Made by a program: the position numbers and the translations under genes. Under the pieces are notes generated by a model that searched no databases, was not told where the DNA came from, and saw nothing but the letters and a program-made list of their open reading frames with translations. A stretch of 64,000 nucleotides of DNA from assembly GCF_004010195.1 (NCBI RefSeq), contig NC_057718.1, forward strand, positions 51,107,941 through 51,171,940, in the 5' to 3' direction. Positions within the stretch are counted from its first letter, which is position 1. Every line of letters starts with the position of its first letter. Positions 16,757 through 64,000 of the stretch are shown here, piece by piece. The DNA is from Chiloscyllium plagiosum. Its lineage: Eukaryota.

Positions 16757-17137
16757 TTTTTAGATTAGAATCAGTCTGAACATTGTGGCACAGACAGTCT
16801 CACACAGGGCACCTCAACTTTCAATACATTATCTGGGCCAACATGACACCAATTGTTAAAGTTCACTTGAGAATATAACTTTTAAAAAGTTCTGTGATTT
16901 ATATATGAAAGAACTGAAACCAACATGTTCATTCTAAAAGATGAGAGACTTAACAAACAATCCAGGTTCTTTTCAATATATAATTTCAGTGACATCACAC
17001 TGTAAACTTTTGCTATAAATTCTGTGTCTTATGATCTTATACTCCACAACCATCTGATGAAGGAGCAGCACTTCAAAAGCTAGTGCTTCCAAATAAACCT
17101 GTTGGACTATAATCTAGTATTGTGTGACTTTTAACTC
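16757..17137 (+). mobile_element. PLE-type 3' terminal fragment with degenerate AGCT-type minimal HHR (17051-17085)
   Basis: cat-CTGATGA-aggagcagcacttc-aaa-AGCT-A-gtg followed by the same tail as 33592-33668 and 48380-48465; left boundary approximate. Confidence 0.7.
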
Positions 17138-19733
17138 GATAAAATGAAGTTCAGAACTGCAATTTATATACCAACTCTCAGTGGTCCGGAATTTGCTATT
17201 GGTAACAAATGGACAGTGTTTGCTGCTGTATATTGATCTCTGTGGGGTGGACTTACTTTTCCTGTTGTTAACTTGAATCAATGCAAGGGGATATCCAGCT
17301 ATCCAGCAACTGTGATGTCACTAGGCAGGATTAACAGCCAGTCATATAGAAAAATCTCACTGATAGTAAATTAAAGTTAAAATGTTCTGATTATGTTTCA
17401 CAACTAAGAAATTTTACAAAGAGCAAGATGAAGATGGGAGACATGTATCAGAAGCTGAAATATCATGCATGAACATAAAACAACTGTGCTTATAAGAGAA
17501 ATATGGAACTTTTATATTAATGTTAAAGTTGACATTACACAAATATAAATCTCAAGGAAAGATAGGCTGTTCTGGAGTAGCTATGACTAAGAACATTGCT
17601 AAAACTTTGTGAACCTCACTAATAAGTTTTTTTTTTCCTGTGATTTCTTGATGATATCATTGCAAAAGGAAGGAAACTCTCATCACTTCAACAACTTGAA
17701 AAAATTGTTGTCTACCTGGGTTTTAACAGTACATTGTGCTGGAAAAGGAATCACTGACAGTAATTTCTGAGTTTTTGCATTTAACTATGTGTTGGCAGAT
17801 GTGAGAGATTACTGTCAGTTATATAGAGTAATGGTAATAAATACTGACATTTTCACAACCATAACATGATAAGATCCAGGTTTTTACCTATCCTTTGTAG
17901 CTTAATAAAAGCTACTTGACTTCTATTTGTTTAAAAATTATTTGTATCCATGCATTTTCACACTGCCATTGGAAGATGCATAATCCAGGCCTTCCCTGCA
18001 TGAGCATGAGACGTTCACCTTTAATCTCAATCTGAATTACAGTTGCACTAAACCAATTGCTGCATGGCTAAATTTTCATATTTCAGGTAGGACAGTCCAT
18101 TTCTCCTGTGCCTATGTTGAACATTCTGCCAGGAGCATTATCTCAAAAGTATGCCAAAGCACTGCTGCATTCACCTGGTGGTTCATTTGACCAAGATTTC
18201 TCTTTGAACCTTAAAATGTGTCCAGGAAGTTTTTAGGTATGTTTCTTCATCTCTCTCCTGTTCTTGCTTTGCTTGTAATAAAGTACTTATTGCTACTTAC
18301 TGTGACTTCTGAAATAAAAATTCTAAGTGGTTCCAAACAGATTTCCTGAAGTGTAGCTTGCAGTGAGTCAGGGAATAAGCCACTGTAAGCTTCAAAAGGG
18401 AACAAATTTGCAGTATTTTGATTCATATTTTCTAACACATTCAGGTTTAAACAGCAGGATAATATCTAGATATTCATTTTTTTTAAAAAAATCAGTGATT
18501 TTCATTTGTATTGGTTTGATATAGCAATTATTATAAAGGTTTGTGATATTATCACTGCCTGATGATTTGGATTCTAAGGTGGAAGAATAATGAATTTTAA
18601 GATTAATTTGTACTTCTGTATTGTATGTGTTATGAAGGGAGGACATGATTTTTGTTTAATTTTAGATTCAGTCAGTGAGTGGTAATGGGGTGTCTGGAAG
18701 TGTATATAATTCTGTGCATTTTAATGAAGTGGTTCAGCCACTGAGATGATTTGTACTGTGCATTCGGAAAAAGAAGGGATTTTATGCAAACCACTGTTGC
18801 CTAGTGAAAGGAGTCCTATAATCACAGAAAGACAGAAGCATTATGAAACAACGAAGCAGTTTGCGGGTTTTTGTCAGTGAGAAAAGATTTGAAACAGCAA
18901 TTGTTTAGAATTCTCCAAACCAGATTGAATTGAAAAGAAATTCTAAATGGCTTAAAAGTCAGTAAGATAACAGCTTCACAAGCAAAAGTCTTCTGAAGAT
19001 ATAAGCTTAAGGAAATATAACCTAAAGTTGAATACTAAGTGAACTGAGGTAGCAGTTTGATAATAGTCTCAGGAAGAGTCATTAACAAAAGGAAGTAACA
19101 TTGAATGAATGCAAAAGTTCACAAAAAAAAAGAACTGATTGCAGTCATGGCAATTAAACAAGGAGCTTTAAAAGTGGAACAAGATATGATGTGGATGTGA
19201 ATGTAGGAGGTTAATAAGTTTGCAGATGACACCAAAATTGGAGGTGTAGTGGACTATATTTAGGGCTATATTATTGGTCAGAGAAAAAAATGATATGTTG
19301 CACTGAATCAACAGTATTACTTGGATCTAAGAACACTGGAAATGGAATCCCTCAGGTGAAAACAGGGAATTAGGTTTTGAGATCTGGGTGTACTGGAATA
19401 TTGTTCCTGAAGCTTGGAAGAACTTATTTAGAACTGAGGAAAAGTAACAGTGGGTGAGTGATGGGGGGAGATAGAATCTAGACTAGTTGAAGGATCTGAG
19501 GATTTTGCAAATTTGAAAGGGTTGGACACTTACAGTTGCTTTGAGTGTGGAGACTAGCATCTTTACTATTTCATTACTTCCAATTCTCCAGAAGATTTAA
19601 ACAAGTTGTGGGGTGGAAATGTAATTGCAAATTGTTCCTAGCTCAACGCCAAAAAGTAAACATGTGGCAATTCATTCCCATCCTTGACACACTCCATGAC
19701 TGATCTTAAACCAGAATTCAGGAAAATGCTTTA

Positions 19734-19810
19734 AATTCTGAAGAAGACTCATATTGGACTCAAAGCATTAATTCTGTTTCTCCCGTCGAGTTTCTCCAGC
19801 GTTTTCTCTT
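19734..19810 (+). mobile_element. Degenerate pLTR fragment with decayed minimal HHR
   Basis: aatt-CTGAAGA-agactcatattggactc-aaagcatt-aatt, then gagtttctccagc tail similar to 44443-44530. Confidence 0.55.
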
Positions 19811-21249
19811 CATGTTACATGCTATGTTCCTTAAAATACTTTTGCAGTTATTTCAGTAAAAGAATAGTAAGTTCATTTGTGAAATAAATCTAAATTCTGC
19901 ATTATGGTACTTAGGCCAATTTTCGAGTGTAAGAGTTATCATTGTTGGGATGGTGGGGGAGGCACGGGGTGGGGGTTTGGTGTGAGGGAGCAAGTTAACT
20001 ATTCAGTCATTGCCAACTGTTGTTACACAGGTCATGAGTGGACCTTAGAGTAAAAGCGAGGTAGCTACCAGTTGTGGGAAGTGGGAAAGGCAGCAAAAGC
20101 TAAGCGTGGTAAGGGAACTTAGTCTTCACAGTGTCCTCTGCAGTTTGAAGATATAAATCAATAGTCAGGATGCCAGAGCGGTGCTGTGTGAGGAGATTGA
20201 ATTTGATCAAGAAACAGGATTCAAAATAAACATTTAATCATGAAAAATGCATTACTGGCAAAGGTGACAAAGTATGCAAAATAAGATGATGCAAGATTCA
20301 TAACATTAAAAGCATTTCAAGAAATAATGCTACATCGGAATTGTGCAGTACCACAGACCTTTAGTGGATTACGACAGGTAGATGCATTTCATTTGTGGTG
20401 GTCTGAGATGACAAGAAAATCAATGCTAAAATGTGAAAAAGCAATGATTTTTGGCAACTGATTGCAATGCAGCACTTTTATCATTTTAATCTGCCTTTCA
20501 AAACAAACCCTTGATGGAATAAAACCTTTCGCTTTCTAAAGGCTGTGAAGGTCTAAGGTGAATTCAGGCAGTCTCAACCCAGTTTTTAATTGAGCAGGCA
20601 TCCAAAGAATAAAATTGCCTGTAACATGACAGTAACGGGAGATAAACTGACAATCTAACCCAGGGTAGCCATAAGGACAGCTGGTGAGAGATTTGGACAT
20701 GCCACATAGATATTTAAGTGGACTGTTTTGCCAAAATAGATTGGATGTGACACTGACCCCACTGATGTTACATCTCCTTGATGCTAACAGGGAGTAGAAG
20801 TGGAAAATACCCATTCACTCCATATCACAAACCTCTTTCTCCTTGAACAGTGAAATTTTTACATGAAAAAATATCACTGGATAAGAATTTCACAGTTAAT
20901 ATTTCTTCCGGTAATGTTAGTTGGTGAGATACAAGCAAACTCAGAGAGAAATAGCTGGGTAAATCTTAAGTCGGGTTTTGTGAAGGGTTTTTCACAATGA
21001 GGCCTAATCAGATTTCTCGCTGTTTCTGACCAAACCTGCCCCATTATTGAGCTGCCACGTCCCTGTGCCAACCCTGCAGTTTGATACAAGCCCCATTTAA
21101 CTATGTAACCATTCCTGGAACAATTTGCCCCTGCCAGGCTATCCAGGGATTGGCTGACAGCCCTGGAGTGTGCGCCATCTTTAAAAGGCTGCTCTGCACC
21201 CAGACAAACACTGTCAGCCCGAAAATGCTCTGCACAGTTTCCTGAACAT

Positions 21250-21435: not shown

Positions 21436-21847
21436 AGGTGTCACTGTCTTCTCTCTGATACCCATTTTATCTCTGCTACTGTATCCACCTCGCACCAAGG
21501 GTCTACCACTCTCACTGTTGCCTGCAACACTTTCCTTGCTGGCTAACAGTCACTGCAACCTGTGATATCAGTAGCCTTTCAAACGGTCTGCGGCATACTC
21601 ACTTATTTTCTCACCTGCAACAACACTAACAATTGTGCCACTCACTTTCATCTCCCTTAAATGTCTGCCTCTCTTATTAGAGGAAGTAAACAGCACATCG
21701 GCCTGAAAGAGTAAAAGCAGATGGTGAGCTGCCTGACGTTTAGCTCCTGATGTGGAGAGCATTCTGACAATGACCCTCCTGAGCAGCTAAATGACCACGT
21801 TCAAGCCCAGGATAGAGGGATTCTTAGAAACTGCCCTTGACCTATTC

Positions 21848-22192
21848 ATAGAATCCCTACCATGCAGAAGGCAGTTATTCAGCCCATCAAATTTGTACTG
21901 ACCTTCCACAGAGCATGCCACCCAAACTTATCCTATCCCCGTAAATCAGCATTTCCCATGGCTAAGCCATCGAGCTACATATCCCTGGGCACTATGCAAA
22001 ATTTAGCATGACTCATCCACCTAATCTGCACATCTTTGGACCATGGGAGAAAATCAAAGCACCCCAAGGAAACCCACACAGAAATGGGGAGAATGTGCAA
22101 ATTCCACACAGGCAGTCACCCAAAGGTGGAACTTAACCCAGGTCCCTAGCACTGTGAGGCAGCAGTGCTAACCACTGAACTACCATGCACCA
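21848..22192 (-). mobile_element. HE1/V-type SINE
   Basis: Reverse complement of the SINE head (ctgtgaggcagcagtgctaaccactga), core and tail. Confidence 0.9.
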
Positions 22193-26100: not shown

Positions 26101-28775
26101 TCACACAGTTAAATTTCTTTTTAGAGTATAGTGACTCTTATTTATTAATGGATGCAAATGTGCATGTTCTTCTATATACCTAGATCTGCACACTATGAAA
26201 ATTGACATGTTTAGATCAGATGGCTCAGAAGTATCAATACGTACAAGAGCATCCACTTCAGATTTTGATCAATAGTCGCTCGAGCATCAATACTTTAATG
26301 GTCACCATTAACCGAAGTTTAAGTGTTACTCTATGAATAGTGGCTCAATTCCTGATCCCACTAATCTTCTAAATCTGTGGTGGACTGGAGGGTTAACTGT
26401 GCAGGGAGTATCGCAAGTAAATCATGCAGGATTGCTTGTAGGCTCCTGGATTAGTTGAAATACATTTAGTCACGGATTTCGGGGCCCGGCATCATGAAGG
26501 GTGGGCCCTGTGAGAGAGTCACCTCCTTGCTCTTGCTGCCAACTCTCTATCCCTGTCACCTACAGAACAGAATTCTCTCGTGCCATCAGTCACCTATGGT
26601 TGAGATACAAAGATGATTCTCAGCCTTGGGTGAATAATGTTATGCACTGGACACTGCCTCTTACCATTAAATAGAGCTGACAAGCTCTAATTGACCAGCT
26701 GCTCTCTGCAGGCAGGATGCAGACTTGATCCACCACTGCCAACCTAAGTGCCTGAGTAGCATTTAGCATATCAGACAGATTTCCCTAAAAAAGGGTCATA
26801 TATGGCTCTTGCTGGTTCTGTAACAAATTCCAACGTCTTTACTGTTCATATTCTTGAATTCTTTCCTGAACAATATCACTCAAAGCTGCTCCAGCAAAAG
26901 GCCCATAGCCACCTGTTCAGGGTGACTCAGGCTAAGTAGAAAATGCAGACTTAGCAGTAGCTCCAATCCCAGCTCAGAAATTTTTGTTCTCATTTGAGGT
27001 TCTCTTGCATTCATGTTTTTTTTGTTTATATAGGATTTATAGATACATCCAACATAATGTTCTTTCATACATGACCAGTTTTACTAATGGCAGAGAAATC
27101 TAAAGGTTTTTACTCTTACCAGCTGTGATATGAAAAGCCATACATTAGATAAGGGCAAATGAGGATGGGAAATAAAGGCTGTCCCAGTTAGGAAAGCCCA
27201 CATCTCCTGAATGAATTTTTTAAAGCAGAGTTGGCGATGATGGAATGTCTTTCAATAAAAAATAACAAAATATCTGTTTTTGCACAAAGCTAGAAGTAAA
27301 AAAATCAAACTGCAGGAATACTAATAAAAGTATAATTCGTGAGAATGCTATTTATTTTGCAGGTCATTAATTACAAAAACAAAAACCCGATACGCTTTCA
27401 CTTTTAATTGAAAATAGAAATTTTGCCCCAATCACAAAATCTGCCTCTATTAGTAAATGATCTTACTTCTCAACATTTTAGTTTGTGTTAATGGTCATTT
27501 TTGTTCCATGCCATTCATTAGAAATATATCAACTCATCAACTTGCTTCAAATACTAATTAAACTATACACACACACTGAAAATTCATTGAAGATGGCATA
27601 ATTATGATTCTATAAGATATCAGGTAATAGCTATATCAGCTAATAGCTACATCAGGTAATTGTTAAGAAATAATACATTGATGATATCAACAGCAATTAT
27701 TTCATCATTAGCTGAATACATAGCACGGCTGATCACACACAATATTTCCAATAATTTTCACCTAAAATGGGGAATACATTAAACAGTGATGACACATTTT
27801 GTTTTCTTAACCTTCACAAGATTGGTCGAGAGGGACTTAAGCTGTAAAAACTGCCACTGACAGAGTTATTTTTATCTTGTTGCTAGATTTGGTCAACAGA
27901 CGGATTTTCTGTGATGTGTCATTAGAGGTTTCACACAGTCCTACTCGTAAAACCTAACACATGAAGGTTGACTGCTCTTATGACATGAGCTGCTATAAAA
28001 ACATGATTAATATTCAATTCCATGATACATAATGAGCATATTTGGTCAGACACTAAAGCTTTTACTATCAGGTTGCAAAGAAACCATATGAGAATCAGGA
28101 GACATTGCAGCATCATACAACATCTATCATTTGCAAGGTAACTGCCTTTCTTTAAAGTTACTCAGGCAGAAAATGAACAGCTGCCATAGCCGTTCATAAG
28201 AAGAAAGCTGTCTTCTCCTCTCGATTGTAATATGCTGCCTCTTGTTATGCCTTTATTAAGTCATGTCAGAATGCACAGCTACATTAACCTAGATTGGAAA
28301 AGTCGCTATCCTTATGGTAAAAACTGATACTTCATTTTTGCACAACTCTAGTCAAATATTTTGTAAAGACCTATTTGTAAATAATTGTGATTAATTTCTT
28401 ACTCCCTTTCATGACAAAAAAGTCACAACTAAATTTATGAGATATAATCTTTTCCAAAATCATATAAATTTAAAAATGCTTGAGGAGCTGATAGTTCGTT
28501 CTTATCTTTGCATGCCAGAGTTGGATATGACAGATGATTTGGTGACATTATGTCATTGACACAGAGCACCAGGAACTGATAGCATATGAACTCACATCTT
28601 CCTGAAAACTCACTAGGATTCCAACAAAGTAAATTGTAAATTGTTGTCAATAAGAATGAGAGTTCTATCAGTGAAAGTCCTTCTACTGAGAGTGGTTTGA
28701 TGTAACAGAAGCAAAAATAAGTGAGAAGAGAGGAAAGTTAAAAAAAACTTCAAAAATAATGGGAAAAGCAAAGGG

Positions 28776-29066
28776 AGGCATGGTGGCTCAGTGGTTAGCA
28801 CAGTACCAGGGACCCAGGTTCGATTCCCACCTCGGGTGACTGACTGTGAAACCCGTGTCTGCGTGGGTTTCTTCTGGGTGCTCCGGTTTCCTCCCACAAT
28901 CCAAAGATGTGCAGGTTAGGTGAATTGGTCATGCTAAATTGCCCATGGTCAGGTGTAAATGTAGGGAAAGGGAATGGGTCTGGGTGGGTTACTCTTCGGA
29001 GGGTCAATGAGGACTTGTTGGGCCAAATGGCCTGTTTCCATACTGTAGGGAATCTAATCCAATCTA
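28776..29066 (+). mobile_element. HE1/V-type SINE
   Basis: GGCATGGTGGCTCAGTGGTTAGCA head, GGTTCGATTCC B-box, core, (AATCT)n tail. Confidence 0.92.
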
Positions 29067-29803
29067 AAAGAAAATGAGGGTGAAATTCAGTGGTAGCAGA
29101 AAATAAATGATAGTGGATCACCTGGTTGTCATGCATGGCTCCTTTTTTCCTTTCTTTTTCCAGGAGTTTGATACACTGCCATAGTTCAATATGGAGTCCA
29201 TGACATCTAGATTAGCATGCTGCTCACCTACATCTTGAAAGGTCACAGAGTTCAATTTATTCTGTCAGTTCAGCAAAACAAAACTGAAACCGAGTCATGA
29301 GAATTAATCTAAGCTGTTACAGAAAGAATTCTGATCCTCGTCACTTGAATATTTTTCACACCAACTATTACACCAGTGAAATGATGCAGCTCAAAAAAAA
29401 TAAATATTATGGCAAGTGTCAAAAATTATCTTCCTAACATTTGCTTACCCTAACATCTATACAGTGTGAGGGGTGATTTTATTTTTAAAGAGGATTGTTG
29501 TGCCATTCACGTTTTAATCAAATAAAATGAATCATTCACAACATCACTTCTACAGTGTGTTAGGGATCAAATGCTGCAGCACTTTGTAAACTAAAATCTC
29601 CATGAAAATATCTTCAAAATTCCCATCATACATTAAAACAATTACAGCTCTTGGTTGCTATACAATTGCATTGTAAAATAAATAAATTAATCAATAAATA
29701 ATACTGAATAAATTCTTCAAATAAATAAAACTGCTTAATTTGAGCCAGAGTTCCTTGGAAGCTGCCTAATACAGCTTCAATTCAAAGATGAATATTATCC
29801 TTC

Positions 29804-30019
29804 CAGAAGAAAGTGAGGACTGCAGATGTTGGAGATCAGAGTGGAGAGTGTGGTGCTGGAAAAGCATAGCAGGTCAAGTAGCATCCGAGGAGCAGGAGAA
29901 TTGATGTTTCTGGCAGTGGAGGACTCCTGATGAAGGGCTTATGCCCAAAACATCGATTCTCCTGCTCCTCGGATGCTGCCTGACCTGCTGTGATTTTCCA
30001 GCACCACACTCTCCACTCT
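29804..30019. mobile_element. Fold-back pLTR element with decayed minimal HHR (CTGATGA at 29927)
   Basis: Inverted arms about 29838-29910 and 29947-30019; TSD AATATTAT(C/T)CTTC at 29791-29803 and 30020-30032. Confidence 0.85.
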
Positions 30020-33000: not shown

Positions 33001-33476
33001 CTGGTAGCTCAACTAAATCATTAGAATTTTATCTTTGTAACAGCCATTTAAAATAATTGCCCATTTAAATGGCTCTTAATATAGTGGACACTGAGGGAAT
33101 GGCTGTGAAGAATACACAGGAGGCATGGAAATGGCATAGGAAGCTTGGGAGGGCATAGAGGAATCATAAATTGTATGGGGCCCTTGTGAGAAGTTGGGGA
33201 GACATGGTGGGAGCATGAGGGAGTAAGAGGGTGCATGTTTGGGTTTTGATGGATATTAGGGGTGATGGAGGGAGCACACAGGATGAGAAGGCATCAAGGG
33301 GATTGGGGTGTGGTGATAAAGGTGTGGGGATTTTAAGGACATTATAACAATGTTAGGGCCTCTCTTCCCAAGAACTGATGTGGGCCTTCTAACCATCCTG
33401 CAGACAGACCCACATTCCTCCCATAATGTATCATAGCTCACAAAACCCAACACTATCCCAATTCCCATCCTACATT

Positions 33477-33668
33477 TTGGAGATGCTGGTGTTGGACTGG
33501 GGTGTACGAAGTTAAAATTCACACAATACCAGGTTATAGTCCAACAGGTTTAATTGGAAGCACTAGCTTTCGGAGCGCCGCTCCTTCATCAAAGGAGCAG
33601 CGCTCAGAAAGCTAGTGCTTCCAATTAAACCTGTTGGACCATAACCTGGTGTTGTGTGATTTTTTAAC
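33477..33668. mobile_element. Fold-back pLTR element, AGCT-type HHR family
   Basis: Near-perfect inverted arms 33511-33586 and 33592-33668; minus strand reads tTGATGA-aggagc-ggc-gctcc-GAA-AGCT-A-gtg. Confidence 0.88.
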
Positions 33669-35759
33669 CCTCATCCCACTTGTATTTAAAAACAAAACAA
33701 AAAATGGCAGGTTCAGATTTTGGAGGTCAGGAACAGATATGACTCAAAGCTAAGAAGAAAATCTCAGCCCTGGTTTACATGGTTACAGAGAGGTTTGTGT
33801 TTTCATCGATTTTCAGAACTGGTATGCTTTAAATACTCAGTGCATAAAGATGTTCTCTGGAAAACAATTCAATGACAGCATCAAATAGCTAACACTTCAA
33901 AACTAAGGTACATTATATTGGTGTTTCTTTTCAACAGGCATTTTTCTGCAGTGAGAAAACATGAAGGCTTCAGACTCGGTAAAGCCATCCGCAGAGTCCA
34001 CAGCATTTGTGCTCACGTGACTATGAATTGCCATTAAATGAGAATTGATGAGCTAACTAGTGACCACGTTCACCTGCTGTGAATGCACTTGAAAACAAGG
34101 AGACATTACATTCAGAATAAGCCTTGAGAGAATAATCAAGACCTTTTCGCAACAGCAGCAAACAGAATTATTTATAACGCTGCAGACAGGAAAGCATTTG
34201 TTGCTCTTTTTATTGCCCTATTTAGAATTAAACCTCTTTGAAACTAAAAACAAAAGAAAAATGCTTTTTTGCAAAACTAGGGAAATATCAGTCTTGCTTG
34301 TCAATTGTATGTTACATTATGTACAAGCATGTAGGAAAACTGACCAAAGCTAAAACATTTAGCAAGGAAGTCTTCTGTTTGTTAGTTTCCTAGCATGATA
34401 TTTATGGTAAATTTCACAACAGACCTATTGATATGAGTTTGCTGCAAAATATAAAACTATTAAAAAATTATGTTTTCAAGGGCTGTATACAAGTTAAGAT
34501 TATCTTCAAATTGGGGTAGAATTGGTGTATGACTTTCCTCGAATAAAATGAGTTTTCTACTACCATGATACATGGTGTAAGGTCACAAAAGTATTTTTAA
34601 AACAAATTTGATTTAAAAGAAAAAGTGAATGCTGGACATCTGAAAGAAAAACAGAAGTATTTGGTTCTCATGTGTTAATCTTACCTGCTGTAAGGCTGCA
34701 CCGAGCATGCTGGCTCATCATGTATACATTGTTATAAGGCTAATTAAAGAACTTCTCGGTAGCTTGAGAATATCTGAAGAGCAGATGAACTCCCAGAAAT
34801 CATGAAACAGAAGCTGGGCGTTCTGTGCTGCTTTGCAGCAAAAAGGGGCAGCTCATATACATGCAAAATGTATTGCTCTAACTTTTGCTTCACATTTATT
34901 TATCCCTATGTGCCTTAAGTAAATAGTCATACATTTTACATATACCTTTGTAAATTAATTTTCATAATTCCTTTGACAAACTGATACAAATTATATTCAG
35001 GATCCCAGCTGTGTCAGCAGGCTGACATAGTCTGTCCTTTTTATTTATTTAACATATATAACTGGGTTAAATAATGGTCTTGCTTTGATGCCAAGGGAAT
35101 CCAATTACAACTTTCGATCTAACACCAGTGTGATACTGAGGTCCAAACTGACTCGACTACTGCCATTTAATGCACTAAATCTGTAATTATACGGCTGTTT
35201 TAATCAACGGTAAAAGTGAACGAGGGAATAAAATGAGACATTTTCATGGATGGAAAGCTGTAATATTGATAAACGTAAGTGACCATGTGACACATTTTTG
35301 CATTGTAAGCCTCCACTGTGATTGAGCCAGCAGCATGAAATGCTGTTGTCTTTCAAATAGTTTTATAAGACTTATCTCCTTGTCATAGCAGTCTCCTGCA
35401 GCATTTTCTCGTATTATTATCTATTATGGCAAAATAACATGCTGAACAAATAGCTTGAATGTGAGACATACAAAACCTTTAATCCTTGCAAAAGCCAATG
35501 GATTAAAAAGTCATAATCATGTGCCAATCAGCATTAAAATAATTTTGGAGCTGTGCATAATTTTCATCAATTAAATTAAGTTTGATCTTTATCTATGAAA
35601 GCTGCAACCATTCTAAATAAACCATTTCCATTGTCAAGGTCACAACTGTGTAAATAATTAACAACTGTACATGACAATATGACTGTGAAGAAGTCCCGTT
35701 ATCATTCTGTCTTTTGATGACAATAGTTGCCATATTGACCTTTATCATTTCTCTGAGGC

Positions 35760-36240: not shown

Positions 36241-36254
36241 ACTGACTAATTATG

Positions 36255-40615: not shown

Positions 40616-42790
40616 AACCGAAAGAACTGAGGATGCTGTAAATCAGAAACAAAAACAGAAGTTGCTGGAAAATCTCAGCAGGTCAAGCAGCATCTGGGAA
40701 AAGAACTCAAAGTTAATATTTCGGGTCCAGTGACGCGTCCTCAGAACTGATGGTAGCTAGGAAAATGTCAGTTTATATACAGAAGGCGGAGAGGGTATGT
40801 AGCAAATGATGGAGGGATGGAGCCCAGAAGAGGGAGAAGAGCAGTTGGACAGACAAAGGAGTCGATAACAATCTGGCTGGGAGGGTGAATAGCTGTTAAT
40901 GGGGACAGTTGGTGGCAAACAATAGGTAGTTTGTAATAGTAGACAATTTGATAATAAGGCCTGGCGTGTGTGGTAGGGGGCTAGGGCATGGGGAGTTCAG
41001 GCCCTAAAACAATTGAAATAAATATTGAGTCCGGAGGGCTGCATAGTCCCAAGTGGAAAATGAGGTATTATTCTTCCAGCTTGCGCTGAACTTCGCTAGA
41101 GCACTGCAGCAAGCCTGAGACAGCAATGTTGACCAGGGATCAGGGCAGTATGTTCAAATGGCAGACAACTAGAAGCTCAGGGTCTTTTTTTACAGGCAGA
41201 ATGTAGATGTTCTCCAAAGTGGTTCATCAGTCTACCCTTCGTTTCCCTGATGTACAGGGGACCTCATGGTGAGTAGTGAATGCACTAGACTAGATTGTGT
41301 GTCGAGCAGGAAGAGTGCTGCTTCACTTGGGAGGTATGTTTGGGCCCTTAGATACTGAGGAGGGAGGAGGTAAGTGGGCAGGCGCTACACCTTCGGCATT
41401 TGCAGGGCAAGGTGCCATGGGACTGTGGGGGTGTTATTGGGAGTGAAGGAAGAGTAGACCAGCGTGTCCCAGAGGGAACGGTCCCTAGGGAAGGCGAACA
41501 AGGGAGGTGAGGGGAGAATTTGTTTGGTGGTGGTATCTCGCTGGAGGTGGCAAAAATGGCAGTTGATGATCTTCTGGATGTGGATGCTGGTGGGACGATA
41601 GGTAAGGACAGGGGGAACCCTTTCGGTGTTGTGGGAAGGAGGAGAGGGGTTGAAGGCAGAAGGTTGAGGGAGATGCATCAGACTTGGTTGAGGGCCCTGT
41701 CGACCACAGTGCTAGGGATTCCTCAGTTGAAGAAGAGGGTGGACATTTCGGAGGGTCCCTTATCAAAGTTAGTCTCAATGGAACATGTGCAATGGAGACG
41801 GAGGAACTGAGAGAATGGAATGGAGTCTTCACAGGAAATGGTGCAAAGTTGCATAGTCCAGGTAGCTGTGAAAGCTGGTGGTTTTATATCAGAGAAAGAG
41901 TTATGGGTGGATACTGGAATAGGACTGAAACATGAAATGTTCCACGTACCCCACAAAGAGACAGGCATAACTGGAGCCCATGCGAGTATCCATGGCCACC
42001 TCTCTGACCTGAAGAAAATGAGAGGAGTTAAAAGAGAAGTTGTTGAGGGTGAGAATGAGCTCTGCCAAGCGGAGGAGGGTGTTACTGGGTGGAGACAGAG
42101 CAGGCCTTTGTTCCAGGAAGACACGGAGTGCCCTGAGACCATCCTGGTGGGGGAATGGACATGTAAAGGGATTGCACGTCCATGGCAAAGAGGAGGCAGC
42201 TGAAGCATGCACACTGGAAATTCCGAAACTGGTGTAAAGTGTCAGAGGAATCTCAGATGTGCGTTGGCAGGCAAAAACAACGGGTCTGCCAAGGTTGTCC
42301 TGTTTGTGGATTTTCGGAAGGAGGGAGAAACATGTTAATTGGGGCTGGGGGATTGTCAGCATGTAGGCAGTGGGCAGGAGATCCCCAGATGAAATGAGGT
42401 CACTGACTGTAGTTGATACAATGGGCCATGGTGGGGTCATGGTCCAGGGAAGTCAGGAAGAGGTTCCTGAGAGCTGGCCCCCAGCCTCTGCAATATAGAC
42501 GTCAGTCCACCAGACCACAGCAGCACCACCCTTATTAGCAGGCTTAATTACAAAATCATGGTTGGACCTAAGCACACAGAGTGCAGTCATTTTGGAGGGA
42601 GACAGATTACTGAAATTCATTAAAGTGGGGATGCTGAGGGATAAAGCGGAGACCTTTGCTGAGACCAAAATTTCAGCATCGGAGAGTCGAAGATTAGGAG
42701 GGATAGTGAATACCTGACAGGAAGTGGGGTTGGGAAAGGGGATGGAATCAGAGGCAAGGGGAGGAGAGGAAGGTTTCAGAAGGCCTGAGT
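40616..42790 (-). mobile_element. Penelope-like element (Neptune-like), degraded, left arm of a head-to-head pair
   Basis: Minus-strand PLE RT motifs KPANKGGAAVVW, LPKIHK, VAMDTRMGSSYACLFVGYVE; linker PCKCRRCSAC; pLTR with decayed HHR at 40711-40748. Confidence 0.88.
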
Positions 42791-42811
42791 TGTTGAATCT
42801 TGTGGGCCTTA

Positions 42812-44545
42812 ACGTTTTACGCCAGTTTCGGAATTCCCAGTGTTCAGGCTCCAGCTGCCTTCTCTTTACCATGGACATGCAATTCCCTTACACGTCTGTT
42901 CTCCCACCAGGATGTCTCAGGGCTCTCCACTCCTTCCTGAAGCAAAGGCCTGAACCACCTCCAACCATGACCCCCCCCCCCCCCCCCTCTGCTTGGCTGA
43001 GCTCATCCTCACCCTCACCAACTTCTCTTTTAACTCCTCTCACTTTCTTCAGGTCAGAGAGGTGGTCATGGATACTCGCATGGGCTCCAGTTATGCCTGT
43101 CTCTTTGAGATGTATGTGAAACATGCCTTATTCCAGTCCTGTTTTGGCCCCCAGCCACAAATCTTTCACTGATATATCAATGATATCATTGGTGCTGCTT
43201 CCCTCTCTCATCTGGAATTGAAAAAAGGTCATTTATTTTGTTTCCAATTTCCACCCTGCCTTCACTTTCACCTGGTCCATTTATGACTCTCCCTTCCCTT
43301 CCTCGACACCTCTGTTTCCATTTCTGGGGATAGACTGACCACTAATATCCACTATAAACCCACCTACTCCCACAGCTACCTGGACTATACATCCTTGCAC
43401 TCTGTTTCCTGTACAGACTCCATTCCATTCTTCCAATTCTCCCGTCTCCATCGCAAATGTTCCAAAAAGACTAACTTTGATAAGGGAACCTCCAAACTGT
43501 CCACCTTCTTCCTCAACTGAGGATTCCCCAGCATCATTGTCTACAGGGTCCTCAACTGGGTCCAACTCATCTCCCACACTTTTGCCCTCAACCCCTCTCA
43601 TCCCTCCCACAAAAGCAATAGGGGTCCCCTTGTCCTTACCTACCACCCCACCAGCATCCGCATCCAGAAGATCATCCACTGCCATTTCCATCCCCTCCAG
43701 CAAGATACCACCACCAGAAACACATTCCCCTACTCTCCCTTTTCCACCTTCTGCAGGGACCGTTCCTCCAATATATCCTGGTCCACTCTTCCTTTACTCC
43801 CAAAACCCGAGCCCCAAAGCTCCACATCATCTTTCCCTGCAAACGCTGAAGATACAACACTTGCCCATTTACCTCCTCCCTCCTCAATATCCAAGGGCCC
43901 AAACATACCTTCCAGGTGAAGCAGCACTTTACCTGCATGATACACAATCTAGTCTACTGCATTCGCCACAGTGGTCTCCTCTACATTGGGGAAACAAAGT
44001 ATAGAATGGGTCACCACTTTGTAGAATATCTACATTCTGCACACTGCCTTGTTCCCTGGCCAACATCTCTGTCTCAGGCTTGCTGCAGTGCTCCAGCGAA
44101 TCTCAGCGCTAGCTGGAAGAACAACACCTCATTTTCCGCTTGGGGACCTTGCAGCCCTCCAGACTCAATATCAAGGTCAGTAATTTTAGGGTCTGAACTC
44201 CCCAATGTCCCAAGTCCAACACCTTGTTGTCACATAGTCTACCATTACAGACTATCTATTGTTAGCCATTAACAGTCCCCATTAACAGCTATTCACCCTC
44301 CCAGCAAGATCGTTATTGACTCCTTTATCTGTCAAACTGTTCTTCTCTGTCTTTGGACTCTGTTCCTACCTATCGTTTATTGCTAAGCCTCTCCATCGAC
44401 TCTACCTTCTGCATATAAACTGACATTTTCCTAGCTACCATTAGTTCTGATGAAGGGTCACTGGACCTGAAACGTTAACTTTGATTTCTCTTCACAGATG
44501 TTGCCAGACCTGCTGAGCTTTACCAGCAACATCGATTTTGTTAAA
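42812..44545 (+). mobile_element. Penelope-like element (Neptune-like), degraded, right arm
   Basis: LFTMD, YIND (YIDD-like), GIY-YIG motif NLVYCIR..LLYIGET; inverted homology to 40650-42240; pLTR with HHR. Confidence 0.88.
44443..44480 (+). ncRNA. Minimal type I hammerhead ribozyme motif
   Basis: AGTT-CTGATGA-a-GGGTC-actg-GACCT-GAA-ACGT-T-AACT: 4-bp stem I, 5-bp stem II (closing G.U), ACGT palindrome, GUU cleavage triplet. Confidence 0.75.
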
Positions 44546-46410: not shown

Positions 46411-46544
46411 CTTCTTCCTGAAGAAGGGCTTATGCCCGAAACGTCGATTCTTCTGTTCCCTGGATGCTGCCTGACCTGCTGCGCTTTTCCAGCAACACAT
46501 TTCCAGCTCTGATCTCCAGCATCTGCAGACCTCACTTTCTCCTC
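46411..46544 (+). mobile_element. 134-bp non-coding pLTR insertion with intact-core HHR
   Basis: Exact 14-bp TSD TATGATTTAAATCC at 46397-46410 and 46545-46558; almost identical to 51545-51674. Confidence 0.92.
46415..46448 (+). ncRNA. Minimal hammerhead ribozyme motif, intact core
   Basis: tc-CTGAAGA-a-GGGC-ttat-GCCC-GAA-ACGT-C-ga; GUC triplet; stem I is short in this copy. Confidence 0.75.
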
Positions 46545-46644
46545 TATGATTTAAATCCAAAACGTTCACAGTCCATATTCTTGACCAATACAACAAAATC
46601 AGATGACTTTTTTTTCTCTTATTTGTTCCTTCTATAGATATCAC

Positions 46645-46970: not shown

Positions 46971-47352
46971 CATCTGCACAATAAAAACCATCACCCTAAA
47001 TCTGTAGATTAGTGAGGTCACAGTTAATATGCTTCCATTACATATGCATAAAACTGGAACATGGTCATTCGATCGTCACTGCCCTTCTTATTGCATTTTA
47101 GATTTCAACATATTTTAACAATTGACATTTTTCTGCAACCTTAAGTGAGCAATTTCTTTGGAAGGAATTAATTGTTGTTGTGATTTCAAGTTTTCATGGC
47201 TCCCTGTTAGTTGAGTATCATGTTGGTGATATATTTAAAATTGTTGTCCCTCCTTTTCAACCTCTTTCCATTCACCGAGCAACCTCCTCCTTATGGTGCC
47301 TTTGCAGTCTTTCCCTTTCCACCCATGACCACACATCAACAAGTAATAACAG

Positions 47353-47640
47353 ATGCACGGTGGTTCAGTGGTTAGCACTGCAGCCTCACAGCACCAGGGA
47401 CCCAGGTTCGATTCCAGCCTTGGCTGACTGTCTGTGTGGAGTTTGCACATTCTCCCTGTGTCTGCGTGGGTTTCCTCCCACAGTCCAAAAATGTGCAGGC
47501 CAGGTGAATTGGCCATGGTAAATTGTCCGTAGTGTTTGGTGTATTAGTCAGAGGGAAGTAGGTCTGTGCAGGTTACTCTTTGGAGGGTCGGTGTGGATGT
47601 ATTGGGCTGAAGGGCCTGTTTCACACTGTAGAGGATCTGA
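47353..47640 (+). mobile_element. HE1/V-type SINE
   Basis: Head, GGTTCGATTCC, core and GAAGGGCCTGTTTC tail. Confidence 0.9.
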
Positions 47641-48288
47641 TCAAACCTTTTTCCTGGACCCTGCTTGAACCAGAAGATTGTAAACCATTTGATTGGTCAG
47701 CAGGCTCTTGGAGGCAGGCTTTCCATTAGTCATAGGTGGAGGTCTCATCCTGAGCCAATTACTCTCCTGCTGAACATTTAAATGGTTTGGGATAATCTAC
47801 CAGATCAGGGCAGATCACCCAAATTTTACACCAGAGTGAAAGGATGTCAGGGAAATGTACAATTCTACCTGTGGCAACTTAAGCGGTGTTCAGGTTTCCC
47901 ATGTCACTACATTGTTAAACAGTTATAAGAAAGTGAAAGTGTTTTTTTTCTGAATGACAGAAATGAAAGGTCAATGTTGACTGGAGTATTATGGAAGGTG
48001 AAAAGTTAAATATAATGGCTGGGATTTTCATGCCAGAGTAAAAATTGCAACGGCTAGATCATTTCTGAGTCCACATTCCAGGCTTCATTAGTATCATCAG
48101 CAAAGCCTCCAACTGGACTGGGGATGAGTTCGATGTCCAATAGCATCACAGGCTCTGCTTAGAAGCTGAAATTGGCTGTGGAATACCTACTGAAAAGCAG
48201 GTGAAAGCCACGAGTGAGCTTAACGTTGCCTTACAACTTGTATCAAGTAGTAGCAGCTTCACGGTGTGTATAAACCTTCATTTACAAG

Positions 48289-48503
48289 GTTAAAAATCAC
48301 ACAACACCTGGTTATGGTCCAACAGGTTTAATTGGCAGCAAACTAGCTTTTGAAGCACTGCTCCTTCATCAGGTGATTGTGATGATGAAGGAACGGTGCT
48401 CCAAAAGCTACTGTGCTTCCAATTAAACCTGTTGGACTATAACCTGGCGTTGTGTGGTTTTTAACTTTGTACACCCCAGTCCAACACCGGCATCTCCAAA
48501 TCA
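48289..48503. mobile_element. Fold-back pLTR element, AGCT-type HHR family
   Basis: Inverted arms about 48289-48371 and 48383-48465; exact 12-bp TSD TTCATTTACAAG at 48277-48288 and 48504-48515. Confidence 0.9.
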
Positions 48504-51496: not shown

Positions 51497-51671
51497 CAAA
51501 GAACAGGAAAATCGACGTTTCAGGCATAAGCCCTTCTTCAGGAATTCCTGAAGAAGGGCTTATGCCCGAAACGTCGATTCTCCTGTTCCCTGGATGCTGC
51601 CTGACCTGCTGCACTTTTCCAGCAACACATTTTCAGCTCTGATCTCCAGCATCTGCAGACCTCACTTTCTC
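51497..51671. mobile_element. Young fold-back pLTR element carrying an HHR on each strand
   Basis: 88-bp near-perfect palindrome 51501-51588 centred on GAATTC; exact 14-bp TSD CTCTTATTGAGATA at 51483-51496 and 51672-51685. Confidence 0.93.
51545..51578 (+). ncRNA. Minimal hammerhead ribozyme motif, intact core (mirror copy on the minus strand at 51511-51544)
   Basis: CTGAAGA 51548-51554, GGGC-ttat-GCCC, GAAACGTC 51568-51575. Confidence 0.75.
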
Positions 51672-52660
51672 CTCTTATTGAGATAGGCTTCCCCAAATGG
51701 TTCTACCAGAATCAAGCACAAATATGAAGTTAGCAGTTAATAATATATTTGTAGTAGACTGAGAAAGTCACTTCTGAATCCTCCAGGGGAGAATTAATTA
51801 TCACCTTCCTGCACTTCTGCTCCTACTTATTCCATGGCTTCCACAATGTGTCCCTCATTTCCTGATACTTCATTAGCACCAATCCAAAATATTGCCTCCT
51901 GCCCTTCGCTCAATGTGTTTAGCCAACATCTAAGCCTTCTGCTGCTGTTAAATACTTTTTGCTCTTTCGTTGTATAATTATTACACCTACTTCTTTACTC
52001 TGCATGCCCATATTTTACCCAACTTACTCACAATATTTATTAAGATATCAACACTAGAGTAAGCCAACTTCCAAGTAATAGCTACAAAGCAGCTACAGCA
52101 CGTTCCACAGTGTCATCCAACCACTCCTTTCCAGAGTTTCTCCATGCCGTGCCATCAACATTGCAATATTCTCACAACTCAAAATTACTCCTCTGCTGCT
52201 ATCATTCCCCAGTGATTTCTCCCACCACATCCTCAAACTTAATATACCCCTCCCAGTATGACAGACAATGAAAATCTCTTCTCAACTCCTTGCAAAATTA
52301 GGCTGTCTTGCTGAATTCCAAATTTATTAGAAATTTTATAGAGTATTGTCCATATGTCATTTTGATGGTACATGAACAATTCAGCATATGTGGAATTATG
52401 AGCATAAAAGATAATGCACTATTCGATAAACAGAGCAGTGAAGCAGGAGTATGTCCAATCAATGCACTACCTAAAATCACCCTGCTCGAATCAATATCTT
52501 CCACCCACCGTGATGTGCCTGAAATATTCCATGGCTTATCAACTTCCTTGCTACTTTGCACCCTGACACCTTTCCCACTTGGTATCCTATTTACCTACTG
52601 ACTTGGTACTTTGTCCTCCATTCATTTGGCACCCTACATAGCCAGTTCACCAGGTATTAG

Positions 52661-52889
52661 ACAGTAAGGTCTGCAGATGCTGGAGATCGGAGTTGAGAGT
52701 TTGTTGCTGTAAAAGCACAGCAGGTCTGGCAGCATCCAGGTGCCGGAAAATCAACGTTTTAGGCCAGAGCTGTTCATCAGGAAGGGCTGTGGAATTCTCC
52801 TCATGAAGGGCTCTGGCCCAAAATGTTGATTTCCCTGCTCCTCAGATGCTGCCTGACCTGCTGTGCTTTTCCAGCAACACACACTCAAC
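52661..52889. mobile_element. Fold-back pLTR element with two decayed HHRs (stem II GGGC-tctg-GCCC)
   Basis: Inverted arms about 52692-52782 and 52798-52889; same tail as the 46411 and 51497 elements. Confidence 0.82.
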
Positions 52890-53099: not shown

Positions 53100-53630
53100 A
53101 ATGCACTCAGCCTTTTTCCCAGGATTTGGGAATCAAGGACTAGAAGGATTTAGTTTAAGGTTAGAGGATAAAGAATAAAAGGGAACCCGGGGGGGGGGGG
53201 GAGAACGCTTTACACAGAGGGTGGTTTGCACATGGAATGAGACAAGAAAACTGCAGATGCTGGAATCCAAGGTAGACAAGCAGGAGGCTGGAAGAACACA
53301 CCAAGCCAGGCATCTTCAGGAGGTGGAGAAGTCAACATTTTGGGTGTAACCCTTCTTCAGGATTTGAGTTCTCCACCTCCTGATGCTGCCTGCTTGTCTA
53401 CACATTTGGACTGAGCTGCCAGTGGAAATGGTTGAGGGGTACATTCACAACATTTAAGAGGCAATTGGACAAATACAAGGATAGAAAAGGTATAGAAGGA
53501 TAGAGGCAGGGAAGTGGGGTTAGCGTGGATGGACATTTTGGTCGGCATGGACTAGTTTGGGCCAATAGGTCTGTCTCCATGCAGTAGGACTCCATGACTC
53601 TGTGACTGTATGACTCCATGACTGTATAAC
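53100..53630 (+). mobile_element. CR1 3' fragment interrupted by a pLTR fold-back
   Basis: ttacacagagggtggt..catggaatga | insertion | gagctgccagtggaa..catttaagaggcaattgga; (gactccat)n-like tail. Confidence 0.8.
53242..53400. mobile_element. Fold-back pLTR element with decayed HHR (stem II GGGT-tac-ACCC, minus strand 53331-53363)
   Basis: tcaggaggtggagaa mirrored by ttctccacctcctga; flanks cacatggaatgag / cacatttggactgag resemble a decayed TSD. Confidence 0.72.
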
Positions 53631-58083: not shown

Positions 58084-58357
58084 GGGCTGCACAGTGGTTA
58101 GCACTGCTGCCTCACAGCGCCAGAGACCCGGGTTCAATTCCTGCCTCAGGCGACTGTCTGCGTGGGTTTCCTCCAGGTCCTCCGGTTCCCTCCCACAGTC
58201 CAAAAATGTGCAGGTTAGGTGAATTAGCCATGCTAAATTGCCCGTAGCCTTAGGTGAAGGTGTAAATGTAGGCGAATGGGTCTGGGTGGGTTGCGCTTCA
58301 GCAGGTCGGTGTGGACTTGTTGGGCTGAAGAGCCTGTTTCCACACTGTAAGTAATCT
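58084..58357 (+). mobile_element. HE1/V-type SINE
   Basis: Closely similar to 39515-39820. Confidence 0.92.
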
Positions 58358-59193
58358 AAACTGTTTATTATGCTTACCACAATATTGAGTATATTGGCAG
58401 GCCTTCCAGGATACAAACTGTCAATTTCAAGGAGGATGGAGGAATTTGGTTTTAACTTAGCACAAAGTTTCACACAGAGCTTGGAGCCCATCACATCAAA
58501 CATGGAAGTGGTGGTCAACTCCATAACAGGATTCGCAGCATAAACTGTGTTGAAGGACCCGTGGTCCCAAAGTCCAAGCTGTAAGATTACAGTAGTGGGA
58601 AACTAACATACTATGATGATTAGTTAGTAATCTCATAACTAAACTACATTCATCCATTAATCTAATATTATTGTATTCCATATAACAGGAGTGAATGGAG
58701 ATCTTGACATTCTGACATCCTGTGACTCTGCTTAGCTTCATTTGTCAAATCAGTTGCATCATGGGATAGTGATCAGGGTGAAGACAATAACTAATGTTTA
58801 GAGTTTCGCTTGGAAGACTGAACTAAGTCTGCTTTAACCTCAGGTCCAGATTTCTAAGGTTGAATAAGTCAAAGATAATGCACTCCCAGTTTGTTAGCCC
58901 TAATCAAGAAATCATAACCACAGCTCTGTTCCTGCATTTGTATATTAAAAGTACATCAAATGACCAAATGTAACCTTTGTCTTAGATTTAAATTTATAAT
59001 TATTGACATATCCTGTACAGCAATTTGGAAAAATTACTCTAACTTCTGATTTTCTGTATTAAGGTAATGCAAGGCGTTTGTAAGCATCAATACAACAAAA
59101 TCAAAACAATAGTCAGTGATAAGTAAGTGTCTGATTTAATGGAACTTTGCCAATTAAGCAAGGATTGAGACTTAAGCTTTAGGCTATTTAGGC

Positions 59194-59455
59194 TATCTCT
59201 CCACCCTGCAGGCTCTCCACCTGCAGGGTGGAGAGATAAATGAGAGGAGGGTGGGGGTGGGGAGAAAGTGGTATAGAGTACCTATTGTACTCCATGCTAC
59301 TTTCTCCCCACCCCCACCGTCCTCTCATTTATCTCTCCACCCTGAAGGCATTCTGCCTCTATTCCTGATGAAGGGCTTTTGCCCAAAACATCGATTTTCC
59401 TGCTCCTCGGATGGCTGCCTGAACGCTATGCTTTTCCAGCACCACTCTAATCCAG
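59194..59455 (+). mobile_element. pLTR fragment with a double fold-back 5' part and decayed HHR (CTGATGA at 59365)
   Basis: Arms 59194-59212 / 59220-59238 and 59220-59281 / 59287-59348; GGGC-tttt-GCCC-aaaacatcga core. Confidence 0.8.
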
Positions 59456-59461
59456 AGTTCC

Positions 59462-62059: not shown

Positions 62060-62144
62060 CCAAAATCAAATTGCTGGAGAAACTCAGCCATGTGTGGCAA
62101 AAATGCAGAATTAATGTTTCAGGTCCAGTAACCTTTCTTCAGAG
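62060..62144 (-). mobile_element. pLTR fragment with decayed HHR, same family as 44443-44480
   Basis: Minus strand reads CTGAAGA-aaggttactggacct-GAAACATT-aatt, then ctgagtttctccagcaa. Confidence 0.65.
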
Positions 62145-63363
62145 GTGATTTGTAATATTTGTAAGATTGCCTCCAACTTTATTTTAAATGTATCTTTATA
62201 TTAATAATAAAGTGAACATAATCAGTATAGACATTTTAAGGAACTCAGTCTGTACCAGATACCTATCTCAGACAATATAGCTTAAAGTACATTCTTGTCA
62301 CACAAGAAATATTGGACAACTTTCAGTTTTTCTGACAGTCAGGCAAATAATATAGTGTGTGTTTTACAACAAAAATGTAGTGTTACAACTTTATGTATTA
62401 CAATGGAAATGTCACATTGCTATTCCCACCCTTTTACCTATGCAGCAGCCATGAAAATCCATTTCTCAGCAGCAGTCCAAATAGTGCTGATTTTGCACAA
62501 AGCATTACCATAATTTATCAATAGTGAGTCCTATTCTGGTGTGAGAATTTTTTTTATTGGGACAAAAGTTCCAGCATTGCTTCTGCAGCAAAATATTAAG
62601 CATGCTCTTATAAATGTTAACACAGAGAGCAAATCATTTGATCAAAATTCCTTAGTCCATTATATTGACATAGAATTCAGACTTACACCTGGATTTAACA
62701 TACTACACCAGGAACATTTTGATTCAACCTTATGCTGAATATTCTATGATTATTAGACCAAATGGTATTGCTATATACCATATTTTATGCTTAATTGAGG
62801 TTCCAAATTGCAGGAACCAGATTATGAGCATATGTATGAATGTGCTCAACAGAGTCCTAGAATTGATCACATCCATGTACTGAAGCAGCCCTGAGCAAGA
62901 GTGTGCCACCAGGATGGATGCTTTCAGTCTGTATATTAAAATTGGGTGTCATCCCCCAGAAAGTGCACTAGCCATTAAATCAATTGACATACTAATCCAC
63001 TTAATAAGCTTTGAACTTCAATGTGGTTGCAAAGATCTGCTATTGGACAGAAGGCAAATCAGCTTTTATGAACCAAACTGCTGCAGAGCTGGTTAATTAG
63101 AGGCAGCGTTACTAAATACAGTGAACCACAAGTATCCTGGATCTATGGCTACCTTTCAACAGCATTTTGAAGTTTCTGGTGAATCAGGAGTAGAATTAAA
63201 TAAAACAATACCACTATTTTTCACAACTAATTTATGGTGTCATACTCCACACCAGTCTTCTGTGTACATTTTAATTAAGGAAATCTGATCAAAGTTTGGG
63301 AGAAGATTTGTAGCTCGGGTGCTCGTTGTTGTGGTTCTGTTCGCCGAGCTGGGAATTTGTGTT

Positions 63364-63402
63364 GCAGACGTTCGTCCCCTGTCTAGGTGACATCCCCAGT
63401 GC
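63364..63402 (-). ncRNA. Mutated minimal HHR motif (third structural family)
   Basis: Minus strand: GCA-CTGGGGA-t-GTCaCCT-agac-AGGgGAC-GA-ACGT-C-TGC; two core deviations (CTGG for CTGA, one A missing), so probably inactive. Confidence 0.6.
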
Positions 63403-63998: not shown

Positions 63999-64000
63999 CT

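Follow-up and report, generated by a model that had tools for sequence, protein, structure and literature searches.

We analysed a 64-kb window, the whole stretch of DNA considered here, of the genome of Chiloscyllium plagiosum (NCBI RefSeq assembly GCF_004010195.1, 3.56 Gb in total; contig NC_057718.1, positions 51,107,941 to 51,171,940 of the forward strand). The window is repeat-rich, has 40% G+C, and had been described in a sequence-only reading as carrying about 15 minimal hammerhead ribozyme motifs. These motifs are almost certainly the hammerhead-bearing end pieces of several families of Penelope-like element (PLE) retrotransposons, and the end pieces are mostly dead through point decay. 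Hammerheads are ordinary for PLEs; those found here are of a known kind, at an unusual density and mostly fossil, and it is their number alone that is extreme. More weight attaches to what our analysis adds, a signature at the 5' joints of the short copies, with a surplus G, in the families that we call A, B and C/D. Taken as a whole, the short copies are probably best explained as complementary DNAs (cDNAs) run off the capped 5' end of uncut element RNA.

Families are named here by stem II: GGGC/GCCC in family A; GGAGC/GCTCC in B, whose stem III palindrome is AGCT; GGGTC/GACCC and its kin in C; GGGT/ACCC in D; and GTCACCT/AGGGGAC in E, family F being met solely outside the window. Position 0 is C3 of the hammerhead core, with minus upstream and plus downstream, and L-numbers denote individual genomic loci that were compared. 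Each of the 15 listed entries (16 arms) is present where it was reported or a few bases away, and all are hammerhead-derived. A strict descriptor matched the window six times and never in 30 dinucleotide shuffles, which served as the control for chance, and a relaxed descriptor matched 24 times versus a shuffle mean of 3.4. One strict match, at 18993, was absent from the earlier list and probably arose by chance. The structural details that had been read from the letters alone also held: an extra base follows A9 (an A in 226 of 230 cases), stem III is a palindrome, ACGT or AGCT, and stem I is short, with 2-4 base pairs (bp). The G10.1-C11.1 pair was G-C in 201 of the same 230 and G-U in 29. 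Most of the listed entries are short insertions with a target-site duplication, often arranged as head-to-head pairs, which had been overlooked; no tandem array of hammerhead units was found in the window. Of the 48 matches that Rfam gave for the window at E<=10, none was to a hammerhead family; hairpins resembling microRNA models were all that it picked up.

The state of these arms is poor. The literal CTGANGA...GAAA core ascribed to every entry stands in six of the 16 arms (40744 on the minus strand, 44447, 46418, 51541 on the minus strand, 51548, and 62142 on the minus strand) and fails in the rest. Full core, stem II and ACGT palindrome come together in four arms (44447, 46418, 51541 and 51548), and in two of these best-kept four a G-U pair replaces G10.1-C11.1. 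The other 12 have a defect in core or palindrome. G12 is A in eight of the 16, at 17054, 19738, 29927, 48372 (minus), 52780 (minus), 52800, 53360 (minus) and 59365, and most of these losses come from CpG decay; the arm at 19738 has an unpaired stem II besides. The minus-strand arm at 33592 is without C3, those at 40744 and 62142 have a damaged palindrome, and that at 63399 has G for A6 and lacks one A.

Across the genome, the pattern CTGANGA-N11..17-GAAACGTH, outside which family B falls, has 140,343 exact matches, compared with 810 for the reversed pattern used as a control, so that the claim of a dense, multi-family complement of ribozyme-bearing repeats stands. A BLAST census with natural copies as queries, in 766 kb sampled from the 21 largest contigs only, found 248 arms, a density near one per 3 kb. 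Unselected DNA amounting to 944 kb held 42 strict cores, 30 of them with a stem II of at least 4 bp and 25 also with a stem I of at least 2 bp. We further collected 82 family A copies from unselected DNA, located through their tail and filtered at 70% identity plus five of the first eight bases, a filter that flatters core preservation; the core was intact in 25 of the 82. Family A G12, C11.1, C15.2 and G16.2 sit in CpG pairs and differ in 22% of cells, as against 3% for the remaining core positions. Given the 12 defective arms of the window and these 25 intact cores among 82, we conclude that most copies are fossils as ribozymes, and motif counts overstate working ribozymes about threefold. 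The covariation noted earlier is found between families, at least six of which carry compensated stem changes, and not within family A, whose 82 copies show one-sided stem II decay only. N7 and loop II differ by subfamily while the core does not, and we therefore suggest that selection acted in the past on active ancestral lineages rather than on the copies, which are now decaying. In the main subfamily of family A, loop II holds an ATG (for example at window 46432), 5' of the cut site, with which an upstream frame of 26 codons begins; this ATG is lacking in the GGGCCTGT subfamily.

The assignment to PLEs rests on linked reading frames. The motifs had been read as minimal type I hammerheads of PLE pseudo-long terminal repeats (pLTRs), and frames with reverse transcriptase (RT) and GIY-YIG endonuclease domains are indeed linked to them. 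At locus L278, an 893-amino-acid frame with an RVT_1 match (E 6e-8) ends 159 nucleotides (nt) before a family A hammerhead; its GIY-YIG match (E 4e-4) falls just short of the curated cut-off, and that of a second family A locus, L050, passes the Pfam cut-off. A tblastn search with the L278 frame matched the family C remnants at window 41006-44202 (E 3e-56). RT and, at the C terminus, a GIY-YIG domain thus share a single frame in family A and are present as remnants in family C. Family E has a GIY-YIG-like remnant different from that of the family C copies, and in family B the 290 nt of upstream sequence that copies share revealed no frame. Pfam gave no match on the window's broken PLE frames, nor on eight other open frames. 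A CX2-5CxxC linker between RT and endonuclease is given as a hallmark of the Neptune clade in the accessible part of PMC8557442. Because the L278 and L050 frames carry a C-X4-C-X2-C linker, we regard family A, and the related family C, as probably Neptune-like, by linker motif rather than by placement in a tree. At L280 and at L051 the 5' untranslated region and the ATG of the frame follow on from the tail, and thus the hammerhead heads the 5' untranslated region, with the family A ATG about 165 nt downstream of it. Among 14 loci with long frames, several of them gapped, none showed the complete 5' end of a full-length copy. In family A copies at the L057:+679 region and at L016, an internal deletion joins the endonuclease end to the -63 region, and a short GIY-YIG tandem triplication is present.

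The 5' ends of the short copies pile up 4 nt before C3 in families A, C and D and 8 nt before it in family B. When BLAST was anchored on the tail, so that no core was required, 5' ends in A, B and C peaked at -5 to -1, the peak falling off abruptly on its upstream side and gradually on its downstream side. Short family A arms end mostly at 0 to -6, and long copies end anywhere from -31 to -900. One exact family A core occurs 33,157 times genome-wide, 19,672 times with four upstream bases (ATTC), 14,313 times with five (by subtraction), 11,568 times with six and 9,837 times with eight. The biggest one-base drop is the step at -5, where 5,359 of the 19,672 (27%) are without the templated C; before it the loss is about 12% per base.

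The base just outside this joint is far from random. It was tallied in the first 100 matches listed, for family A by eye and on a single contig. Where the family A base at -5 was not C, it was G in 67, A in 18 and T in 15; one base further up, the counts were C 60, G 21 and A 19 (Fisher p 0.004 versus -5), and the G surplus there was not significant (p 0.11) against a background in which G makes up 41% of purines. In family B, the base at -9 was G in 67, A in 10 and T in 23 of 100 matches listed, and at 30 family B loci the G copies had no upstream homology and most T copies were long. The surplus was weaker in C/D (G 58, A 42 at -5). Solo copies, whose neighbour is host DNA, had G in 38 of 53 purines versus the 41% expected; by context, over all DNA compared, the fractions were 14/22, 7/8 and 17/23 for solo copies and 17/28, 17/17 and 4/6 for inverted ones. 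Among long family A copies, G was found in only 3 of 62. At 30 family A loci the G was plainly non-templated in about six and lay more often within microhomology to the host or the other arm, as would be expected if a cDNA ending in an extra C could pair. In five head-to-head pairs (L209, L246, L247, L248 and L289) the two arms, separated by 2-21 nt of filler, both have the G. In each of these families an A comes next after the surplus G, and it lies about 30 nt downstream of a TATA-like box: TATAAA is 29-32 nt upstream of the inferred start in B and C, and TTTATCT occupies roughly the same spot in A and D. Compared with the initiator consensus, the inferred start appears by sequence to lie in an initiator-like context in A, C and D, and the four bases counted from that A make up precisely the stem I of A2, C and D. 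A pyrimidine tract plus AG stands 12-27 nt before the core in A, C and D (for example at window 44420-44435), with a branch-point-like motif in C, and could be a splice acceptor for read-through RNA; the positions of these motifs do not match the 5' end cluster.

The 3' ends and the pairing of arms complete the picture of the insertions. The 3' ends cluster at +80-94 and +120-129, giving two end points about 35-40 nt apart, and clean target duplications of 10-14 nt flank the insertions at 46418, 48382, 51548 and 62142. An inverted shortened copy, a one-sided tail and a target duplication are all found, as in endonuclease-positive (EN+) PLEs. The 158 core-bearing family A arms divide into 61 that reach well upstream, 59 that abut an inverted arm and 38 that are solo. 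Across 59 pairs the arms are concordant in subfamily, with a mean of 1.6 non-CpG differences between arms versus 3.9 at random, and since paired arms share subfamily marks, both cDNAs would come from one RNA or one source locus. We had considered that the palindrome might pair two different RNAs per insertion; with no clear mixed pairs among the 59, this was unsupported. The two arms of a pair can end at differing 3' points, one with a tail and one without. Many fillers between arms (L209, L246, L247, L248, L289) have AG as their last bases and duplicate parts of the core, which suggests repeated template jumps. At L300 a family B short copy abuts the 3' end of a family E arm, and PLE ends may attract further insertions.

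We propose the following mechanism. RNA polymerase II would start at the A just inside the joint, and the capped start of the element RNA quite likely lies, judging from box and joint positions, at the first ribozyme stem. The 5' strand of stem I would then be the first few bases of the transcript, and stem I would be so short for that reason. Reverse transcription would begin internally, 85-125 nt downstream, as in Anolis Poseidon, and initiation within the 5' repeat would give a run-off product of 90-135 nt that integrates, with the cap copied as an extra base. Reverse transcriptases can copy the cap as an extra G. Priming would take place on both nicked target strands, and a pair of run-off cDNAs made from one RNA or source would be joined through microhomology or filler; on balance we favour two cDNAs joined head to head per insertion. 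The ribozyme would be off during reverse transcription and integration. With the cut site placed between the reverse-transcription start and the reading frame, cleavage would ruin the template, and no copy could get to the frame without passing that site; for this reason we tentatively suggest that the ribozyme could act as a brake on element RNA, dependent on dimer formation or on protein, which would decap and split that RNA. Retroviral minus-strand strong-stop DNA is likewise a short cDNA, begun close to the 5' end and extended as far as the cap; the likeness is an analogy only, as the cDNA here would be primed on the nicked chromosome and integrated rather than transferred.

Little points to cut RNA as the template. 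Copies starting at the cut site (+28) number 438, versus 163 at +32 by the same purine test. Point mutants and microhomology at stem I account for most of this small excess: of 30 copies inspected, 7 retain the core and are point mutants or carry small deletions, and many of the rest are joined through bases that resemble stem I. At most a minor class of copies starts at the cut site.

Several observations weigh against the proposed mechanism. Only part of the short copies stop exactly at the inferred start, many being 1-20 nt short, and the boxes of families A and D are not canonical TATA. Many of the Gs lie in microhomology with the host or the other arm, so that single cases are ambiguous and the argument is statistical; four of the five pairs with G on both arms came from lists that required a non-C base, L289 alone having been met by chance. 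Family E, with 13,134 exact cores, showed no 5' cluster at the ribozyme or clearly behind a TATA box in 29 copies, and a start cluster predicted about 20 nt before its core was not seen in them. A single-cell RNA run, possibly from a relative, gave 1,545 reads from both strands, whose starts and ends formed no pile, at the cut site or elsewhere, and a second RNA run gave no reads. The most frequent loose read end in the first run was exactly at -4 (140 reads); both strands were represented, and we therefore take these ends to be short genomic copies within host RNA and not a transcription start. The hammerhead dimer was not the minimum-energy dimer fold in any of the four scorable copies of five tried, which accords with the low activity reported for minimal hammerheads (PMC4209133, from its accessible text). 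In Drosophila virilis, the available sections of PMC2377424 and PMC4209133 put the Penelope start about 120 nt upstream of the hammerhead, behind an intron that ends at helix I (PMC4209133), so a start at stem I is not a general layout. Our literature search, made over main texts with few subscription papers among them, found no paper on a cap copied as an extra G or on a PLE transcript start at stem I.

Could ordinary 5' truncation produce the same joints? RT might fall off past an unwound hammerhead, or the ATT preference of the endonuclease might set the joint by microhomology, with the G a terminal-transferase habit unrelated to the cap. The 5' ends are, after all, scattered across about 20 nt, many solo joints have GAT or GATT in common with the target, and the Anolis protein PAc favours ATT, the bases at the family A joint, in the accessible text of PMC11167929. 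We nevertheless consider this explanation unlikely. Family E has the same fold and lacks the cluster, which disfavours a purely structural stop and limits our model to families A-D. Moreover, the G is found in front of ATTC, ACAA and AGTT without distinction, its place (-5 or -9) tracking the position of the TATA-like box; it is not in significant surplus one base up; and target duplications of inverted insertions show, by eye, no tendency to end in GA. A different possibility accepts that the 5' ends mark the RNA start and derives the inverted arm from fold-back self-priming of one cDNA or from an antisense template, as proposed for rotifer PLEs. The concordance of paired arms in subfamily fits this, joints are often placed at palindromes or at complements of stem I, the fillers are copied from bases of the element itself, and self-priming has been argued from junction palindromes (PMC3846280, in the part available). 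It does not easily account for the five pairs with an extra G on both arms, as a fold-back could hardly copy its own last base, or for arms that end at two different 3' points with a tail on one only, and PAc extends both strands (PMC11167929, same portion). We consider fold-back rather improbable as the general route, and it stays a live rival for some joints.

That the stubs are an independent mobile ribozyme family, like retrozymes or miniature inverted-repeat transposable elements, or a set of functional host ribozymes, is very improbable. Their copy number is very high, their length uniform, about 30% of cores are intact, and stubs are transcribed inside host RNA; retrozymes without long terminal repeats (non-LTR retrozymes) have also been reported in one chondrichthyan, according to the accessible portion of 10.64898/2026.07.22.740005. 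Yet the window has no tandem arrays, the joints differ between copies, the short copies lack the upstream box, the CpG core positions are decayed, and the RNA reads come from both strands without a pile at the cut site. The complement is a by-product of PLE insertion rather than a concealed part of host biology.

The comparisons that follow draw on the accessible portions of each source. The metazoan minimal hammerheads of Cervera & De la Pena (2014, PMC4209133) are like those found here in being type I, with a loopless palindromic stem III, an extra base after A9, a G10.1-C11.1 pair and a short stem I, and in forming several families per genome, mostly solo with some opposite-strand pairs. 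Their numbers, with different descriptors, are about 4,000 in coelacanth and 9,000 in Xenopus, compared with our 140,343, and no transcript start at stem I is given in that text, unlike in our proposal. In EN+ PLEs (Craig 2021, PMC8557442; Arkhipova 2013, PMC3846280), an inverted 5'-truncated copy carries a 30-40 bp tail, and head-to-head arms, a tail at one end, target duplications and junction palindromes are shared with our insertions; TATA and initiator-like motifs were noted in rotifer pLTRs, as here. Unlike those descriptions, the arms here are only 90-135 nt long and end at a single base, one arm or both bearing a surplus G, and PMC3846280 favours antisense self-priming, differing from our two-cDNA reading. 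PAc of Anolis Poseidon (Frangieh 2024, PMC11167929) has two internal reverse-transcription starts downstream of the hammerhead, like the two 3' ends here, and such starts would account for our tail pattern. With PAc, both strands were extended, uncut RNA was the dominant substrate, no reads lay at the cut site, and protein-assisted hammerhead cleavage was reported. The PAc frame begins inside the ribozyme, in contrast to the downstream family A ATG, and PAc is a Poseidon element, for which that text maps no transcription start, whereas families A and C are Neptune-like. Non-LTR retrozymes (10.64898/2026.07.22.740005) are non-coding, derive from PLE repeats and have a type I hammerhead, as here; they are defined by tandem units, whereas our stubs are solo or head to head, and against the absence of such units in the window we saw one 42-nt local duplication, in L289.

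Within the window, family A supplies five insertions. A head-to-head short insertion at 29799..30019 (plus strand) has an 8-nt duplication on both sides, a core at 29927-29954 (plus; G12 = A, ACAT) and an inverted arm with tail at 29805-29915. A solo short insertion with a micro-inversion (46411..46544, plus) keeps an intact hammerhead at 46418-46445 and a tail, between 14-nt target duplications at 46397-46410 and 46545-46558. The head-to-head insertion at 51497..51671 (both strands) has intact cores at 51541-51514 (minus) and 51548-51575 (plus) and a 14-nt target duplication; each arm stops at the inferred start base (-4), with AT common to both. Another, at 52659..52889 (both strands), has decayed cores at 52780-52753 (minus) and 52800-52827 (plus). 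The copy at 59194..59448 (plus) has about 80 nt of upstream region folded as two nested inversions and a core at 59365-59392 (G12 = A, ACAT). Family B is represented by a long copy at 16760..17136 (plus, start approximate), with an A/T-rich upstream region, TATAAA at 17014, no tail, and a hammerhead at 17054-17082 with G12 = A and a broken stem II; by a head-to-head short insertion at 33476..33669 (minus), whose core (33592-33564) has lost C3 alone and whose partner arm begins at stem II; and by a head-to-head insertion at 48289..48503 (both strands), with a tail on the plus arm only, a 12-nt target duplication, and cores at 48372-48344 (minus) and 48382-48410 (plus, unlisted earlier and without C3), G12 being A in both.

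Two broken Neptune-like copies of family C lie head to head. That at 40648..42890 (minus, upstream limit approximate) has RT, linker and GIY-YIG remnants, a TATA box and an end piece whose hammerhead (40744-40715) has an ATAT palindrome and a stem II mismatch; that at 42940..44542 (plus, start approximate) has RT and GIY-YIG remnants and, at 44447-44476, a hammerhead with an intact core, a 4-bp stem I and TATAAA 33 nt upstream of the core. A short family C insertion at 62060..62144 (minus) has its core at 62142-62113 (ACAT, G10.1 = A) and a 10-nt target duplication. The family D short insertion at 53251..53396 (minus) has a core at 53360-53334 (G12 = A, ATGT) and a short inverted arm at 53364-53396. 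In family E, an inverted arm at 63289..63498 (minus; core 63399-63367, A6 = G, one A absent) adjoins a forward copy at 63499..64000 (plus) with the GIY-YIG-like remnant, whose own hammerhead lies 21 nt past the window end (L106:1021). A heavily decayed hammerhead of the GAGTC/GACTC stem type, at 19738..19769 (plus; G12 = A, stem II unpaired, palindrome damaged), has better-preserved relatives elsewhere (L006). Other features include an open 657-amino-acid frame at 5928-7901 (plus; RVT_1 E 1e-35), which we take to be a fragment of a young CR1-type long interspersed element; dispersed repeats like short interspersed elements at 14722-14940, 21846-22189, 28775-29067, 39282-39907, 47352-47648 and 58084-58362, those at 39.3-39.9 kb arranged as nested inverted pairs; and a 21-nt tandem repeat of 4.3 copies at 13443-13533.

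These results bear on where PLE RNA starts, why stem I is nearly missing, how the inverted arm originates and what the ribozyme does. For four families, with thousands of joints behind it, they give a single-base prediction of the transcription start. If the full proposal is right, for which we see about even chances, a Neptune-like PLE transcript would start at the first base of stem I and would have left hundreds of thousands of cap run-off cDNAs, often two per site; the PLE inverted repeat would arise from twin priming on capped, uncut sense RNA and not from antisense self-priming, and the ribozyme would serve as a decapping brake rather than as a maturation step.

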